Notes: generated by a model from the letters alone, not told the origin. Numbered from the stretch's first letter, positions 2,938 through 46,455 are shown. The stretch is 64,000 bases of DNA from Patescibacteria group bacterium (GCA_038065315.1 JBBTRF010000002.1:12021-76020); one strand, 5' to 3'. Made by a program: numbers and translations.

Positions 2938-4238
2938 AATGGTGAGTCGATTATACCTTTTTTGCTCTGGATGCGAAGCAGGTCACTATTCGGCTTGGTG
3001 TTGGCGTATTCAAGGACGGTGTAGCCTTCGGCGCGCAACGCTTCGGCTGTTTCGCGCACGAAATTCTGAGAATCCTTCAGTTTGGCGGCGATTGAGGCGG
3101 TGCGACGCTGGATCACTTGGCCGCCATCGCTGATTTTTTGCAGTTGTGCGTTATCGGCAATTTCACCAGTCAATGCCTCGAGGTGCGCTTCGAAGGTGGT
3201 GAGGATGGAGGCGGCAGAAGAGGTAGCGTCGGCGCCAGCGCCGCTTCTGCCACGTGCATCGTTCTGCAACTCTGATTCGAAAGTGGTCGAAGCTGGTTGG
3301 CGGGCGTTGATCTCGATGAGGTAGAAGCGCTGTGTGGATTCTTCGAGAATAGCGTCGATGCCGAAGAGACCTTTCCAGCCTAATGCTGCCAGGCGCGCGC
3401 CGCCGGCGCGCGCCATTTCCTCATACTGCTTGCGGAGCTCCGCCGAAAGTGCCGCCCCCTTTTTCCAGTCATTGCCCACTGTTGAAAAAGGAAGATCGGT
3501 GAACGGTGCGAGGCCGGTGATTTGATAGCTGATATTGCCGACGAGTGTCTTCGGTCGAGAAAAAGCGCCGAACAAACCGAAACCGTTTTTGAACATGCGC
3601 CTAATCGGTACCACGCAGTTGTTGCTCGTATACATTGATCCTTTCACGAATGGACTCATGCGCACCTCGCGCTGAGGGAATTGTCTTTGGATCTCAGCGA
3701 GCTGTTCGACGCTCTGCACCAACACAGTCCCTTCACCTGTATGCGCATGGGCAAATTGCAAGACAAAAGGTACGCCTTCCCATGCGAGCTCCATACAGAT
3801 GGCGAGGCGAGTGCCAGGGACTAGAAAGCGAGCCGCGGCGCCGAGCGAGGCGACCTGGGTTATCTTGTTTTCGAGGTGTTCAGCGAGCGAGGCGGAAGGG
3901 TTCAAAAGTCGCCAGCCTTTTTCGCGCACACAACGCTCGATCCGTGACGTATTTTTGAATACGACGATCGCTGGCTTCTTGCCATGCGCCTTTGCAATAT
4001 TTTTCACAAACGCTGAAGTAGCTGGATGCTCCAAAAGGTCAATTGTGTCGAGTTGCGCGCTACTACCTTTTGTCGCGATGTTCTCACTTCGCACAAGCAA
4101 CACCTGCTCAGGGTACTTTGCTTGTACTGCCTCAGCATACGGACTGACATTGGCGACAATATAATAGCCGGCCGGCAGGGAAGCGAAGCCGGTCGCGCGC
4201 TCGATATCACGGGTGACGTAGAGGGTCGGAGCCTTCAT
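2919..4238 (-). CDS. ATP-grasp domain protein (carboxylate-amine ligase family)
   Basis: 439 aa; ATP-grasp C-terminal signature GLFGIDAILEESTQRFYLIEINARQPAST; overlaps next gene by 19 nt (operon with C40-like gene and mraY). Confidence 0.55.
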   Translation of the reverse strand: MKAPTLYVTRDIERATGFASLPAGYYIVANVSPYAEAVQAKYPEQVLLVRSENIATKGSSAQLDTIDLLEHPATSAFVKNIAKAHGKKPAIVVFKNTSRIERCVREKGWRLLNPSASLAEHLENKITQVASLGAAARFLVPGTRLAICMELAWEGVPFVLQFAHAHTGEGTVLVQSVEQLAEIQRQFPQREVRMSPFVKGSMYTSNNCVVPIRRMFKNGFGLFGAFSRPKTLVGNISYQITGLAPFTDLPFSTVGNDWKKGAALSAELRKQYEEMARAGGARLAALGWKGLFGIDAILEESTQRFYLIEINARQPASTTFESELQNDARGRSGAGADATSSAASILTTFEAHLEALTGEIADNAQLQKISDGGQVIQRRTASIAAKLKDSQNFVRETAEALRAEGYTVLEYANTKPNSDLLRIQSKKGIIDSPLCNPTH

Positions 4239-30140: not shown

Positions 30141-31953
30141 GGTATTTTTTGTGAGACTGTAGCCAGATTTCCAGGCAGTACAGTACCCAGATCTTGTAAT
30201 GATATTCATCTTTACCCTCGACGTAGAATCGGTGAAGCAATGCCTCGACCGCTTCTTTGTTCATCATTGAAAAGATCTCCGCCTTTGGGTCGGATAGCGT
30301 CTTCTCCACTTCGGTTTTAAATGCGCCTTCTCTTAGCCATTTCTTCACCGGTGCACCAAAGCCTTGCTTGCGACGATGAACGAATTCCTGCGGCATCACC
30401 TCGCCGAGCAGGTCCTTGAGGATGCGTTTGTATGTCGATCCATCGGTTTTGTATTCATCGGGTAGGTTGTACACGAATTCCGCCAGCTTGTGGTCGAGGA
30501 AGGGCGAGCGCACTTCGAGTGAGTTCATCATGCCGGCTCGGTCGGCTTTCACCAAAAGGAGGCCAGGGAGGTAGGTGGTGAGGTCGAAGAGGTTGATCTT
30601 TCGGGCGGATGAGAGGGTCGAATGCGCGACTTGTGTATTGATGATACCGCCACCTTCATTGCTGCTGCCAGGTTGTTTCTTCCACAGTCGTCTTTTTTCA
30701 GATGAACTGAATACGCTGATTGCTCGTATGTATCCAGCAAATGGGCTCAGAAATACTTTCTCAATAAAATTCTTTCGGTACGACAGATGCTTGTGTCGAG
30801 TGTACCAACCATAGCCCAGGAAGAGTTCGTCTGCGCCGTCACCAGAAAGTGCCACCTTCACTTTCTCAGCGGTAGAGCGGGAGAGAAGAAACTGAGGGAA
30901 GTCCGATGAGTCGGCGTGTGGTTCGTCAAAATATGCGAGGGCACTACGGAGCTCGCCAACAGCGTCATCTTTGGCTTGTAGGGGGTAATGTTCGGTACCG
31001 ATCTTCTGAGAAGCCTCGAGGGCGAAGGGGAGTTCGTTGATATAGTTTTGGTACCCGATTGAAAAAGTCTTGATTGGGGTCTTGGAAAAAGATTGTGCGA
31101 GGTGGGTGACCAGCGTGGAGTCTACGCCGCCAGAGAGGAAGGAACCGATCTCTACGTCGGCGATCATGCGCTTGCGCACTGCATCGGTGAGTAGTCTTCG
31201 GACGCCCTCCTTTGCCTCAGCGTATGTCAGTGTTTTTGTGTCGGTTCCGTTCGGTACGGTTTTTTCAAGTTTCCAGTACTGAGAAATCACCAAACGATCT
31301 TCAGTGTTTGTATTCTGAAAATCCAAAGTTGCACAAGACGCCGGTGGTAAGGTGTAAATATTTTTGTAGGTAGTTTTCCATGGCGGGATGTACATCAAGG
31401 TGAGATAGTCGTCGATGGCGGCTGGATTGAGTACGCCCTTTATTTTCCCCGATGCGAAGATTGCCTTGATTTCTGAGGCGAATATCAACGCACCGTTTTG
31501 GTCGTACGCATAATATAATGGCTTTTTCCCAAATCGATCTCGTGCCAAAAAAAGCTGCTGCTTTTCATCATCCCAAATAGCGAAAGCAAACATGCCGTCG
31601 AGATGTTTCGGACACTCAGCCCCGTATTCTTGGTAGGCTTTCAAAATCACCTCGGTGTCTGAATTGGTCGAGAAAGTATGACCTTTTTTTTGAAGCACAC
31701 TGCGCAGCTCGCGATAATTATAGATCTCGCCGTTGAAAGTTACGGTGAGGTTATTTGCGTTGTCCCGCATCGGCTGATGTCCGCCAGAAAGATCGATGAT
31801 CGAGAGTCGTGTTTGCGCTAGGACACATCGGTTGTATCGCGCGATCCCCTTGTCGTCTGGACCTCTCTTGGCTAGTGTGTCGAGCATCGAGCCGAGCATT
31901 CGGTCGTCGTATGTCTCAATGTTTGCGCCGGTAATGCCCAGGATTCCGCACAT
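30127..31953 (-). CDS. asnB: asparagine synthetase (glutamine-hydrolysing), WbpS-type amidotransferase
   Basis: MCGILGI N-terminal nucleophile Cys2, SGGVDST PP-loop. Confidence 0.85.
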   Translation of the reverse strand: MCGILGITGANIETYDDRMLGSMLDTLAKRGPDDKGIARYNRCVLAQTRLSIIDLSGGHQPMRDNANNLTVTFNGEIYNYRELRSVLQKKGHTFSTNSDTEVILKAYQEYGAECPKHLDGMFAFAIWDDEKQQLFLARDRFGKKPLYYAYDQNGALIFASEIKAIFASGKIKGVLNPAAIDDYLTLMYIPPWKTTYKNIYTLPPASCATLDFQNTNTEDRLVISQYWKLEKTVPNGTDTKTLTYAEAKEGVRRLLTDAVRKRMIADVEIGSFLSGGVDSTLVTHLAQSFSKTPIKTFSIGYQNYINELPFALEASQKIGTEHYPLQAKDDAVGELRSALAYFDEPHADSSDFPQFLLSRSTAEKVKVALSGDGADELFLGYGWYTRHKHLSYRKNFIEKVFLSPFAGYIRAISVFSSSEKRRLWKKQPGSSNEGGGIINTQVAHSTLSSARKINLFDLTTYLPGLLLVKADRAGMMNSLEVRSPFLDHKLAEFVYNLPDEYKTDGSTYKRILKDLLGEVMPQEFVHRRKQGFGAPVKKWLREGAFKTEVEKTLSDPKAEIFSMMNKEAVEALLHRFYVEGKDEYHYKIWVLYCLEIWLQSHKKYHVAD

Positions 31954-44250: not shown

Positions 44251-44278
44251 TTGCATTTATTTTTGGCTGTCCTATAAT
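44251..44278 (+). promoter_or_regulatory. near-consensus sigma70 promoter (TTGCAT-16-TATAAT) whose predicted TSS coincides with first tandem repeat
   Basis: TTGCAT 44251-44256, TATAAT 44273-44278; +1 predicted about 44285. Confidence 0.5.
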
Positions 44279-44284
44279 TAGTCC

Positions 44285-44448
44285 ACTCTAGCCGTAAATC
44301 CGGCTCCCGAGATTCCTCCCAGCGATGGGATGTTTCGCCAAGCGTTTCGCAACAAGGCCTTCACCTTTTACTTCAGGCATCTTGCGACAACGTAACTCTA
44401 GCCGTAAATCCGGCTCCCGAGATTCCTCCCAGCGATGGGAGGTTTCGC
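44285..44448. repeat. tandem direct repeat, 2 x 54 bp, period 110 bp
   Basis: directly visible in sequence; single t/g difference at unit position 47. Confidence 0.85.
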
Positions 44449-44454
44449 TTTTAT
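44285..44454 (+). ncRNA. candidate about 170-nt small RNA composed of two 54-nt structured direct repeats, ending in intrinsic terminator
   Basis: repeat 1 44285-44338, repeat 2 44395-44448 (53/54 identical); each unit folds AGCCG-uaaauc-CGGCU and CCUCCCA-GCGA-UGGGAGG (GNRA loop); repeat-2 hairpin is perfect and followed by UUUCGCUUUUAU. Confidence 0.4.
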
Positions 44455-44849
44455 AGGCTTCTACGCACTTTCTCTAAGAGTTGTTGAAAAGGGGCCGGTT
44501 CCATTCTCCACATTATTCTCGAAAGTCTTCGAGCACTTATCGTTCTCAGTTGAGAAAAAATAATGCCGTAGTAAATTCCGTCATGGGTGTGTCCATATAT
44601 GTACTGCCCATCTCTCTCCTTGCTTGTTGTCGGAGCGATAAGGAGCTTGTCTCTATTGTACTTCTTCAACACAATTACCGGTCTTTCAAATTTTTCATGT
44701 TTTCCATCTTCTTCTCTCCCGATATTCACCCCTAGACTAGCCCACCACACCTCGCCCTCCTTGAACGGTGTAAAAATTTCAGTTGCGTCCAACGTTTTCT
44801 TTATCGTATTCCACCTGTCGAAATCTTTTTTGTATCCTAGGTCGTCCAT
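44451..44849 (-). CDS. PemK/MazF-family endoribonuclease toxin (orphan; no adjacent protein antitoxin)
   Basis: 132 aa; GEVWWASLGVN...ERPVIVLKKY...LLIAPTTSK...IFSQLRTISARRL matches MazF/PemK core motifs. Confidence 0.5.
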   Translation of the reverse strand: MDDLGYKKDFDRWNTIKKTLDATEIFTPFKEGEVWWASLGVNIGREEDGKHEKFERPVIVLKKYNRDKLLIAPTTSKERDGQYIYGHTHDGIYYGIIFSQLRTISARRLSRIMWRMEPAPFQQLLEKVRRSL

Positions 44850-44920
44850 CTATTCAGCTTAGCAAAACACCGATAGAGAAACTGCCAAGAAAGGTTCAAG
44901 AAATCCCTAATTTCTGATAA

Positions 44921-44959
44921 AGAAAAAATAAAACCCGACGACAAATACTTGTCGTCGGG
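44921..44959 (-). terminator. Rho-independent terminator of GNAT gene
   Basis: 11-bp stem CCCGACGACAA/TTGTCGTCGGG with 4-nt loop, followed on minus strand by U-rich tract. Confidence 0.6.
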
Positions 44960-45538: not shown

Positions 45539-45892
45539 GGGATGTGTTTTTTGCAATGAACTACACGGCCGCAAGATCGCTCTTGCTTTTCGAACCGTAC
45601 TGAACGCGGAACAGAAAATCCCGACTTTCGTTCAGTCGGGATTTGTCTAAATAGTATTGGAGTCAGCGATTACTGATTACAATAGGGATTTACACACATT
45701 GCGACTGAATAAAACGGGCTGTCGGTGTCCTTTCGGGACGCGACGAAGACGCCATAGAGGGTGGCGTTTGGTCCGATATTCATATGTTCGCATGGGTAAT
45801 GCATGAGAGTATAATAGCACGGGTGTAAAATAAAGTCAAATACTTTACATACATTAAAAACCATGTTACGGTGGGTCCAGAAAGCTTGAATT

Positions 45893-46291
45893 ATGCCGAC
45901 ACTATACTCACTATCGACCACCATTCCTTTAGATGCCAACGGTAACCCAATAGGCGAAAGTGCCCCAACAACAGCAGAGATCCTCGCGACATCTGGTCTA
46001 CTCCATCTGTTTCTGGGCAGTAGGTTTCTGGTGGAGGACGATGGCGGAGTCCGGAGAGTTCAGGTTGACGAAATGCTGACATTTCCCCTGACTGACACGG
46101 TCAATTTTCACCCAAAAAGTGCGTGCCCTCAATTACTACTCCTTGCGAACCTGGTTCCATTACGGGAAGCCGAGCCAGCGATTGCGGACAGAGAGGCAAG
46201 AACATTTTGTCTCTGCGGAGTCTGTGTTGTATCACAGCAACAATTGAATTTTTACTTCCAAGAGGGAAGACTCAAAGTCCGCATCAGTTGA
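45893..46291 (+). CDS. hypothetical ORF in protein-poor region (doubtful)
   Basis: 132 aa, ends just before intrinsic terminator at 46310-46344; no homology, weak RBS. Confidence 0.15.
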   Translation: MPTLYSLSTTIPLDANGNPIGESAPTTAEILATSGLLHLFLGSRFLVEDDGGVRRVQVDEMLTFPLTDTVNFHPKSACPQLLLLANLVPLREAEPAIADREARTFCLCGVCVVSQQQLNFYFQEGRLKVRIS

Positions 46292-46309
46292 AGGGTTTGT
46301 GTCGAACCA

Positions 46310-46344
46310 CTCCTTGCCCCAGGCAGGAGCGGTTTTTTATTTAC
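46310..46344 (+). terminator. Rho-independent terminator
   Basis: bulged 8-bp stem CTCCTtGCC/GGCAGGAG followed by GTTTTTTATTT. Confidence 0.5.
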
Positions 46345-46455
46345 CTGGATCCTGTGCTTCCGAAGGGATGGATCGGGGTCGTGCAGGATTTTCAGACAAA
46401 GAAAAAACCGCGTGGCGCACTGGGCGTCACGCGGTTCGAGAGTGTCAGTCAGGCT

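Follow-up and report, generated by a model that had tools for sequence, protein, structure and literature searches.

A PemK/MazF-fold gene of a Patescibacteria group bacterium and its conserved convergent small RNA, a candidate RNA antitoxin

Results

A MazF-fold gene convergent with a duplicated small RNA gene

We analysed a stretch of 64,000 nucleotides from a Patescibacteria group bacterium (GCA_038065315.1 JBBTRF010000002.1:12021-76020), in the following the window, in which an open reading frame (ORF) on the (-) strand at 44451..44849 (stop codon 44451-44453) encodes a protein of 132 amino acids (aa) with an ATG start. A first-pass annotation had described this gene as an orphan PemK/MazF-like endoribonuclease with no antitoxin ORF, and in keeping with its family we refer to it as the toxin gene. 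Directly 3' of its stop codon lies a 54-nt direct repeat, the two copies of which (44285-44338 and 44395-44448) are 98% identical; no further copy is present in the window, with shuffled sequences giving an expectation of 0 matches. Both copies are parts of units of a predicted small RNA gene on the (+) strand, i.e. convergent with the toxin gene. Its promoter, as read from the sequence at 44251..44278 (+), consists of TTGCAT (44251-56), a 16-nt spacer and TATAAT (44273-78), and the predicted +1 at 44285 is the first base of the first repeat copy. A stricter consensus promoter scan missed this site, its -35 element fitting at only 3/6 positions.

Unit 1 of the small RNA (44285..44342, (+)) comprises a 5' tail, a hairpin AGCCG/CGGCU, a linker CCCGAGA and a second hairpin CCUCCC/GGGAUG, the terminator being weak owing to a mismatch in its stem and an interrupted U-tract (UUUCGCC). 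Unit 2 (44395..44452, (+)) has an intact intrinsic terminator, CCTCCCAGCGATGGGAGG at 44425-44442 followed by TTTCGCTTTT, which a terminator scan calls on the (+) strand and the U-tract of which overlaps the toxin stop codon; its predicted fold has -23 kcal/mol (z=-3.5). A covariance model of the RNA family, introduced below, matches unit 2 at 44388-44457 with 43.5 bits (E=3e-9) and unit 1 at 44278-44342 with 23.6 bits (E=3e-3). The units are separated by a spacer (44343..44394, (+)) that is ~91% identical to the one in the orthologous locus L003 and has a predicted hairpin, and no recognisable promoter for unit 2 was found within it. Since the terminator of unit 1 is weak and unit 2 has no recognisable promoter of its own, the two units are probably made as one transcript of ~170 nt in addition to one of ~57 nt. 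We also considered a CRISPR-like mini-array and a miniature inverted-repeat transposable element as readings of the two repeats and rejected both, each unit fitting the family RNA model. A search of Rfam 15 with the window locus and 12 related loci returned nothing at E<=1 beyond chance terminator-like matches.

In the two orthologous loci L001 and L003 the toxin gene likewise stands beside a convergent enolase gene, whereas the upstream gene differs, encoding a GNAT protein in the window, an MFS protein in L001 and iPGM in L003. The RNA element directly follows the toxin stop codon in both, in one copy in L001 and in two in L003, and the promoter is also present in both (TTGCGT-17-TATAAT in L001). 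Among the three loci the RNA is near-invariant, while the synonymous divergence (dS) of the enolase genes exceeds 1 and the toxins are 68-70% identical. In one of the L003 copies hairpin 1 is exchanged for a different, perfect 12-bp stem with almost unchanged flanks. The spacer of ~56 nt is ~91% conserved between the window and L003 (4459-4514) although synonymous sites are saturated; L001, with its single unit, has no spacer.

The gene product is a PemK/MazF-fold protein

The Pfam profile PF02452 (PemK_toxin) matches the toxin with 29.6 bits, above the curated cut-off of 23.1 (E=8.4e-7), in an alignment covering the full domain (toxin residues 30-131, profile positions 1-108/109). The same profile is carried by 29/35 toxin homologues, which the National Center for Biotechnology Information (NCBI) names "type II toxin-antitoxin system PemK/MazF family toxin". 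Scans of the toxin with NCBIfam and PADLOC gave no match, and a single-sequence phmmer search against the PDB gave chance matches only, being uninformative and making a family profile necessary. Searched against the PDB, such a profile retrieves B. subtilis MazF (4mdx, E=1e-7) and furthermore the MazF proteins of S. aureus, M. tuberculosis and E. coli as well as Kid. Toxin residue R56, invariant in the family, aligns with the catalytic R25 of B. subtilis MazF, and T75, the first Thr of a P-x-T-T motif, aligns with T48 of the same enzyme. The AlphaFold2 model (predicted local distance difference test score, pLDDT, 79) has a beta-barrel preceded by one helix at the N-terminus and followed by another at the C-terminus, and Foldseek places MazF structures as best matches (E=2.7e-6; template modelling (TM) score 0.6-0.78, about 0.7), the top 50 PDB matches listed belonging to the MazF family, with MazF of S. 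aureus, B. subtilis, M. tuberculosis and E. coli and B. anthracis MoxT among them. The product of 44451-44849 is thus a genuine PemK/MazF-fold protein rather than a member of a non-toxin family, and the family assignment of the first-pass annotation is borne out by profile, fold and catalytic residues alike, with endoribonuclease activity being predicted from sequence and model.

The alignment of homologues shows an invariant core, G-x-N-x-G-x-E-x-x-G-K...R-P-V and P-x-T-T, preceded by a family-specific N-terminal helix, KDFDRWNxxKK, in which W13 is invariant and K17 near-invariant and which canonical MazF proteins do not have. Comparison with the two orthologues gave a proportion of non-synonymous changes (pN) of 0.17-0.19 and of synonymous changes (pS) of 0.76-0.93, and the resulting pN/pS of ~0.2 indicates the toxin gene being under purifying selection. 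Non-synonymous change is nevertheless ~6x faster than in the adjacent enolase gene (pN 0.03). At the protein level, identity to the same relatives is 68-70% for the toxin and 94-95% for the enolase, and the G+C content of the toxin gene region (44500-44950) is 0.39-0.43 compared to ~0.53 in its neighbours. The enolase of the window is 74-79% identical to those of metagenome-assembled genomes of Patescibacteria (Parcubacteria group), which assigns the host to this group.

A structured RNA opposite the toxin stop codon is conserved across the family

At least 584 relatives of the toxin were confirmed in species-representative genomes, mostly of Patescibacteria. From these we took 80 toxin loci, more distant than the orthologues above, as a genome set and added an independent set of 80 metagenome toxin loci, resulting in 160 homologous loci. 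An exact-motif search with the core of the window RNA matched close orthologues only. Inspection of the regions downstream of the toxin in the genome set revealed a conserved element following nearly every toxin stop codon. Read as the reverse complement, it begins with a promoter, TTGACa-N17-(TGn)TAtAcT, followed ~7 nt later by ACAAAU, and continues with a short hairpin (GGCC-loop-GGCC), a linker nCCGAG, a GC-rich hairpin and a U-rich tail ending on the toxin stop codon. From 46 sequences we built a covariance model, which found 79 matches in the 467 kb of the genome set, all on the strand opposite to the toxin, and ~66/80 loci have a match at the stop codon. In the resulting alignment 91.3% of cells are paired, compared to 35-60% in slid controls, and all 11 of the 11 pairs show compensatory changes, with 130 double-change cells versus 34±5 in shuffles.

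The strand of this RNA can be read from its exceptions to Watson-Crick pairing: 64 G-U pairs stand against 11 A-C pairs, an excess which identifies the strand opposite to the toxin as the transcribed one and which, together with the promoter orientation, led us to reject an element of the 3' untranslated region (UTR) on the toxin strand. In line with this orientation, 115 of 144 non-identical loci have the motif TTGAC-N16-19-TAnnnT near the toxin stop codon on the opposite strand, compared to 5 with the motif on the toxin strand. Not only the helices are conserved: the unpaired G-A-G is the same in all RNAs compared (68/68).

In the metagenome set the model gave 40 matches, again all opposite to the toxin strand, and 36/80 loci have one adjoining the toxin stop codon; paired cells amount to 94.2%, and compensatory changes occur in 8/11 pairs. 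A second RNA class with the same promoter and position occurs in 36 metagenome loci (L104-L169), seven of which are also covariance-model matches. It has the order AUAAACGGCUUCGGCCUCG, hairpin, UCAGA, A-rich tail and GCGGUUA (e.g. L163, 1718-1784), and neither CCGAG nor a U-tract after the hairpin is present in it. By eye, the remaining loci mostly hold related RNA variants.

The overlap between the 3' end of the RNA and the toxin stop codon amounts to 2-7 nt in most loci. No terminator is present on the toxin strand between the stop codon and the RNA gene, while some loci have one just past the RNA gene. The RNA gene is single-copy in most loci and duplicated in the window; three RNA matches are present in L093, the extra copies lying at 2147-2219 and 2740-2803. 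Overall, the RNA accompanies the toxin in ~140 related loci with unrelated neighbours, and since the flanking genes differ among loci, the RNA travels with the toxin. Comparison of gene order hence reveals an RNA gene instead of solitude beside the toxin, and the orphan status assigned in the first-pass annotation does not hold, a conserved partner being encoded on the opposite strand in most of the 160 loci and in varied contexts. The repeat RNA had been noted there as the downstream boundary of the gene; it does lie 3' of the stop codon, as a conserved partner rather than a boundary.

Two types of exceptions to the common arrangement are informative. Firstly, RNA genes are found without an intact toxin gene: in L044 the RNA gene (3039-3103) is preceded by a toxin remnant, 14 codons of the C-terminus, and in L142 (1400-1461) it adjoins the stop codon of an unrelated gene of 457 aa. 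Secondly, in the clade of L043 and L090 and in L070, the RNA gene lies upstream of the toxin gene in divergent orientation (L090, 1284-1359, corresponding to L043, 1-34; L070, 34-106) and no RNA gene lies downstream, the gene order in L090 being nusG, secE, small RNA and then the toxin on the other strand. In L090 and L070 complementarity between RNA and toxin mRNA does not exceed that of shuffled controls, and the RNA does not overlap the predicted toxin transcript. If the toxin mRNA is leaderless, as suggested below, the upstream RNA gene of the L043/L090 clade would lie outside the toxin transcript. A site complementary to CCGAG was not found in the toxin 5' region. The toxin family itself is patchy and mobile, occurring on plasmids and in prophages and in several copies in some genomes.

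The toxin gene has no conserved protein antitoxin

An adjacent, co-oriented antitoxin gene of the MazE, PemI, AbrB or ribbon-helix-helix type is neither present in the window nor conserved in the 80 genome loci, and no ORF upstream or downstream of the toxin is conserved across these loci. Upstream of the toxin, 36 of the 80 are without any ORF on the same strand that ends within 60 nt, in 23 a large gene of unrelated type is present, and the other 21 hold small ORFs that are unrelated to one another and start mostly with a codon other than ATG (ribosomal protein L33 is encoded by one); antitoxin domains were not detected in these candidate small ORFs. The statement in the first-pass annotation that no small upstream ORF exists in any frame needs correction insofar as one ORF of 35 aa with a TTG start is present (44837-44944, (-)), spanning the terminator of the GNAT gene; its substance, i.e. 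that no conserved or recognisable antitoxin ORF precedes the toxin, stands and extends to the whole subfamily, as sampled by the 160 homologous loci. We rejected this 35-aa ORF as an antitoxin, a stop codon interrupting it in L001 and no Pfam family matching it. Likewise rejected were an ORF of 30 aa in the RNA spacer, which L001 lacks and which carries a frameshift in L003, and an ORF of 42 aa antisense to the toxin 3' end, which is conserved neither in L001 nor in L003, so that no conserved antitoxin overlaps the toxin in another frame.

The upstream side of the toxin gene carries a putative extended -10 element, TGcTAAGCT (44856..44864, (-)), read from the sequence and ending 6 nt before the ATG. 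Among 136 loci, a TAnnnT ends 5-9 nt before the toxin ATG in 67, compared to 14 in a control window, while a Shine-Dalgarno-like motif precedes the ATG in 3, the toxin gene of the window having none. The position of the -10 element and the missing Shine-Dalgarno sequence suggest the toxin mRNA being leaderless. Further upstream lies a conserved T-rich region, TTTCTTGAAC..TTTCTTGGCA..TTTCTCTATCG (44865..44915, (-)), common to L001 and L003 despite the different upstream genes. The T-rich motif TTTCTTTATCG / TTTCTTGAAC recurs upstream of toxins from lineages distant from one another, namely in the window (44865-44915), in L001 (3925-3990), in L043/L090, L052, L065 and L080, and may act as a promoter or an operator. 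The terminator of the upstream GNAT gene (44962-44931, (-); 14-bp stem and T-run in the terminator scan) bounds the toxin gene on this side, as annotated before, and lies outside the module. The ~880 nt separating the GNAT gene from the following clear gene (45575-46455) are devoid of a convincing ORF or Rfam match, holding just an ORF of 132 aa (45893-46291). In the whole window ARAGORN finds no tRNA genes, and no Rfam family reaches its gathering threshold.

A distant counterpart on the Campylobacter plasmid pVir is expressed

By tblastn, distant toxin homologues were found on plasmids of Campylobacter, Helicobacter and Nitratiruptor and in Campylobacter CJIE4 prophages. One of these, pVir0047 (CJJ81176_pVir0047; 30634-31038) on plasmid pVir of C. 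jejuni 81-176, is a full-length member of the toxin family (hhalign 99.5%, E=3.6e-22, residues 8-136) which at ~30% identity to the toxin keeps the N-terminal helix F-D-x-W-N-x-x-K-K; no protein antitoxin gene was found for it. From the pVir sequence we predicted a convergent RNA with a promoter TTGATT-N17-TATAAT, a transcription start site (TSS) at ~31119(-) and a terminator hairpin at the toxin stop codon, ending 5 nt past it. This TSS coincides with the published start of the small RNA CJpv3 (31119-31043, 77 nt), which was detected by Northern blot, the differential RNA sequencing (dRNA-seq) step height at 31119(-) being 16164 compared to 28 for the toxin TSS (Dugar et al. 2013, PMC3656092, Tables S5 and S12). 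In this compilation CJpv3 is given without a function (PMC3656092). Expression of the RNA equivalent to that of the window is thus observed in C. jejuni. Both the Campylobacter locus (L087; pVir 31043-31119) and a Nitratiruptor plasmid locus (L088; ~1885-1945) have promoter, hairpins and terminator opposite to the toxin stop codon.

For pVir, an RNA antitoxin, cjrA, and a protein toxin, cjpT, have been reported by Shen et al. 2016, as cited in PMC10470494 and PMC7826846. Another candidate for cjrA on pVir is CJpv2, which lies opposite to small hydrophobic ORFs. The cjrA/cjpT system is possibly identical to the CJpv3/pVir0047 pair.

Discussion

The toxin gene and the RNA gene of the window, the structure and strand of the RNA and its genetic linkage to the toxin are observed across the family, and the antitoxin missed by the first-pass annotation is most likely this RNA. 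The reading we prefer, tentatively and on the basis of sequence comparison, is that toxin and convergent RNA form a toxin/RNA-antitoxin module in which the RNA inhibits the toxin by binding to it directly. According to this model, a MazF-fold endoribonuclease toxin would probably be translated from a leaderless mRNA, while an RNA of ~57 nt, in the window present as a tandem duplicate, would be transcribed towards the toxin gene from its own strong sigma-70-type promoter, terminate on the toxin stop codon and keep the toxin harmless. It would do so by binding the toxin protein in a type III-like manner, with the conserved, unpaired 5'-ACAAAU (ACUCU in the window) and CCGAG possibly being read by the RNA groove of MazF together with the N-terminal helix specific to this family. 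Antisense action on the toxin mRNA, by pairing at its 3' end, could contribute, and both modes could operate.

Two observations lead us to favour direct binding over antisense action. The unpaired nucleotides, i.e. the G-A-G and the 5' tail, stay conserved across toxins being only ~40% identical, and a cis-antisense RNA would not need conserved unpaired bases. Moreover, the RNA genes of L043/L090 and L070 are divergent from the toxin gene and do not overlap it, their complementarity being at the level of shuffled sequences. The toxin-antitoxin nature of the pair is supported by the presence of multiple copies, by carriage on plasmids and prophages, by the fast evolution of the toxin and by the retention of RNA genes beside toxin remnants.

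Several points weigh against this model. The convergent, stop-abutting arrangement is near-universal, which is predicted for a type I system and not required for a protein-binding RNA, and in several loci the last 20-70 nt of the toxin ORF lie within the RNA gene. The argument from the divergent RNA genes depends on predicted promoters and on two lineages. The covariance model did not match on the plasmid loci L087 and L088, so that across phyla it is the RNA architecture alone that is common. The pVir antitoxin cjrA has been described as an antisense RNA of type I (PMC10470494), which would count here if cjrA were CJpv3. Finally, toxicity, its neutralisation and the mode of neutralisation including the RNA-protein contact are what we infer from the sequences.

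An alternative is a type I-like system, in which the toxin mRNA would read through the RNA gene and the convergent RNA would pair in cis with this mRNA, at its 3' end or in its 3' UTR, causing its degradation, e.g. by RNase III, or blocking its expression without any RNA-protein contact. We consider this possible, though less probable than direct binding. It agrees with convergence and stop overlap in the great majority of the ~140 loci, with the toxin strand having no terminator ahead of the RNA gene and, in some loci, one just beyond it, with the description of cjrA as an antisense RNA of type I, with the entry of the toxin ORF into the RNA gene, and with a leaderless toxin mRNA, which would leave the 3' end as the sole handle for an RNA; the 3'-overlapping antitoxins SR4, SR5 and SR6 of B. 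subtilis, as described in PMC5848175, provide a precedent. For such an RNA, however, conservation of unpaired bases across very divergent toxins would be superfluous, the divergent RNA genes show no complementarity above chance level, and the toxin is a soluble RNase fold of 132 aa and not a small membrane peptide.

A further explanation accepts the link between RNA and protein and denies that the RNA is an antitoxin: it might serve as a dedicated substrate, as a ribonucleoprotein cofactor or as another regulator, and the protein need not be a toxin that inhibits growth. Linkage and conservation by themselves establish a partnership only, and the additional conserved N-terminal helix would fit a function different from that of canonical MazF. 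We regard this as improbable, however, as the protein keeps the catalytic Arg and Thr of MazF, its patchy distribution on mobile elements with several copies per genome is typical of toxin-antitoxin systems, RNA genes persist beside toxin remnants, and in C. jejuni the RNA far outnumbers the toxin mRNA.

A classical type II system, as the NCBI family name implies, with a protein antitoxin encoded by a very small ORF or elsewhere in the genome, is very unlikely given that no ORF on either side is conserved, that the small upstream ORFs are non-homologous and lack antitoxin domains and that the spacer ORF is absent from or frameshifted in the orthologues; this negative result covers the 64-kb window and the 80 loci, and an antitoxin encoded in trans would lie outside this scope. 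There is just as little room for the earlier reading as a truly solitary toxin next to repeats being an unrelated terminator, a repeat or a small RNA of the enolase locus: the element includes a terminator hairpin and enolase adjoins it in the three closest loci, but the same RNA follows the toxin with its own promoter in ~140 loci with unrelated neighbours, and covariation extends to a second hairpin, which is not required for termination.

Compared to known systems, the proposed module shares with the type III systems ToxIN, CptIN and TenpIN the combination of a protein endoribonuclease toxin and an RNA antitoxin, and the tandem RNA repeats of the window resemble those of type III; direct inhibition of the protein by the RNA is the mechanism proposed for the module. 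The ToxN fold is related to that of Kid/MazF (reviews PMC5086642, PMC3401426). The type III toxins are ToxN/AbiQ, CptN and TenpN, whereas the toxin described here belongs to PF02452, has no PADLOC match and has a fold matching MazF and not ToxN. In type III systems the RNA is an upstream repeat array on the same strand, processed by the toxin and separated from it by a terminator, in contrast to the RNA described here, which is encoded downstream and on the opposite strand, comes with a promoter and a terminator of its own and is mostly single-copy. With those type I systems in which the RNA overlaps the 3' end of the toxin gene, such as bsrG/SR4 and yonT/SR6 of B. subtilis, the module has in common a convergent cis-encoded RNA and, as seen for pVir of C. 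jejuni, an excess of RNA over toxin mRNA. Type I toxins are usually hydrophobic peptides of <60 aa, unlike the MazF-fold RNase described here, and the RNA differs from type I antitoxins in being conserved in sequence over phylum-level distances and in not overlapping the toxin gene in one clade. SymE and RalR are non-peptide toxins of type I systems. The type II systems MazEF, PemIK and Kid-Kis share the toxin fold, the catalytic Arg and Thr, the size and the Pfam family, and differ in that the module has no MazE or PemI gene but an RNA partner, an extra N-terminal helix in the toxin and a predicted leaderless toxin mRNA.

The closest described pair is CJpv3/pVir0047, with a toxin of the same subfamily and an abundant convergent RNA having its own promoter and terminating at the toxin stop codon; RNA sequence and number of hairpins differ from those of the window family. 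Unless it is identical to cjrA/cjpT, this pair has been reported only as a small RNA beside a hypothetical protein. The literature searched, in which Shen et al. 2016 is represented by its citations only, contained no paper on a MazF-family toxin with an RNA antitoxin, and the RNA family and its extent in Patescibacteria appear to be undescribed in the sources searched.

As a summary, the module of the window probably marks a large, little-described family of toxin/RNA-antitoxin pairs. With more reserve than for direct binding itself, we suggest that a large subfamily of MazF/PemK toxins, mostly of Patescibacteria and with members on plasmids and prophages of Campylobacterota, may have replaced the MazE protein by a stand-alone, convergent RNA of ~55-60 nt that binds the toxin directly. 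Such a subfamily might then represent a new class of RNA-antitoxin systems, employing a type III mechanism but differing from type III in toxin family, gene order, strand and RNA, a suggestion we make with the same reserve. Databases and NCBI label these genes type II, and in the output of toxin-antitoxin finders they would appear as solitary toxins. Should the RNA be the antitoxin, a branch of the best-studied toxin superfamily uses a different class of antidote, and hundreds of "orphan" MazF genes in Patescibacteria would be explained. It would also define a new structured RNA family absent from Rfam, provide a compact MazF-RNA pair for testing the silencing of the MazF active site by RNA, and give the abundant small RNA CJpv3 of C. 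jejuni pVir a candidate function.
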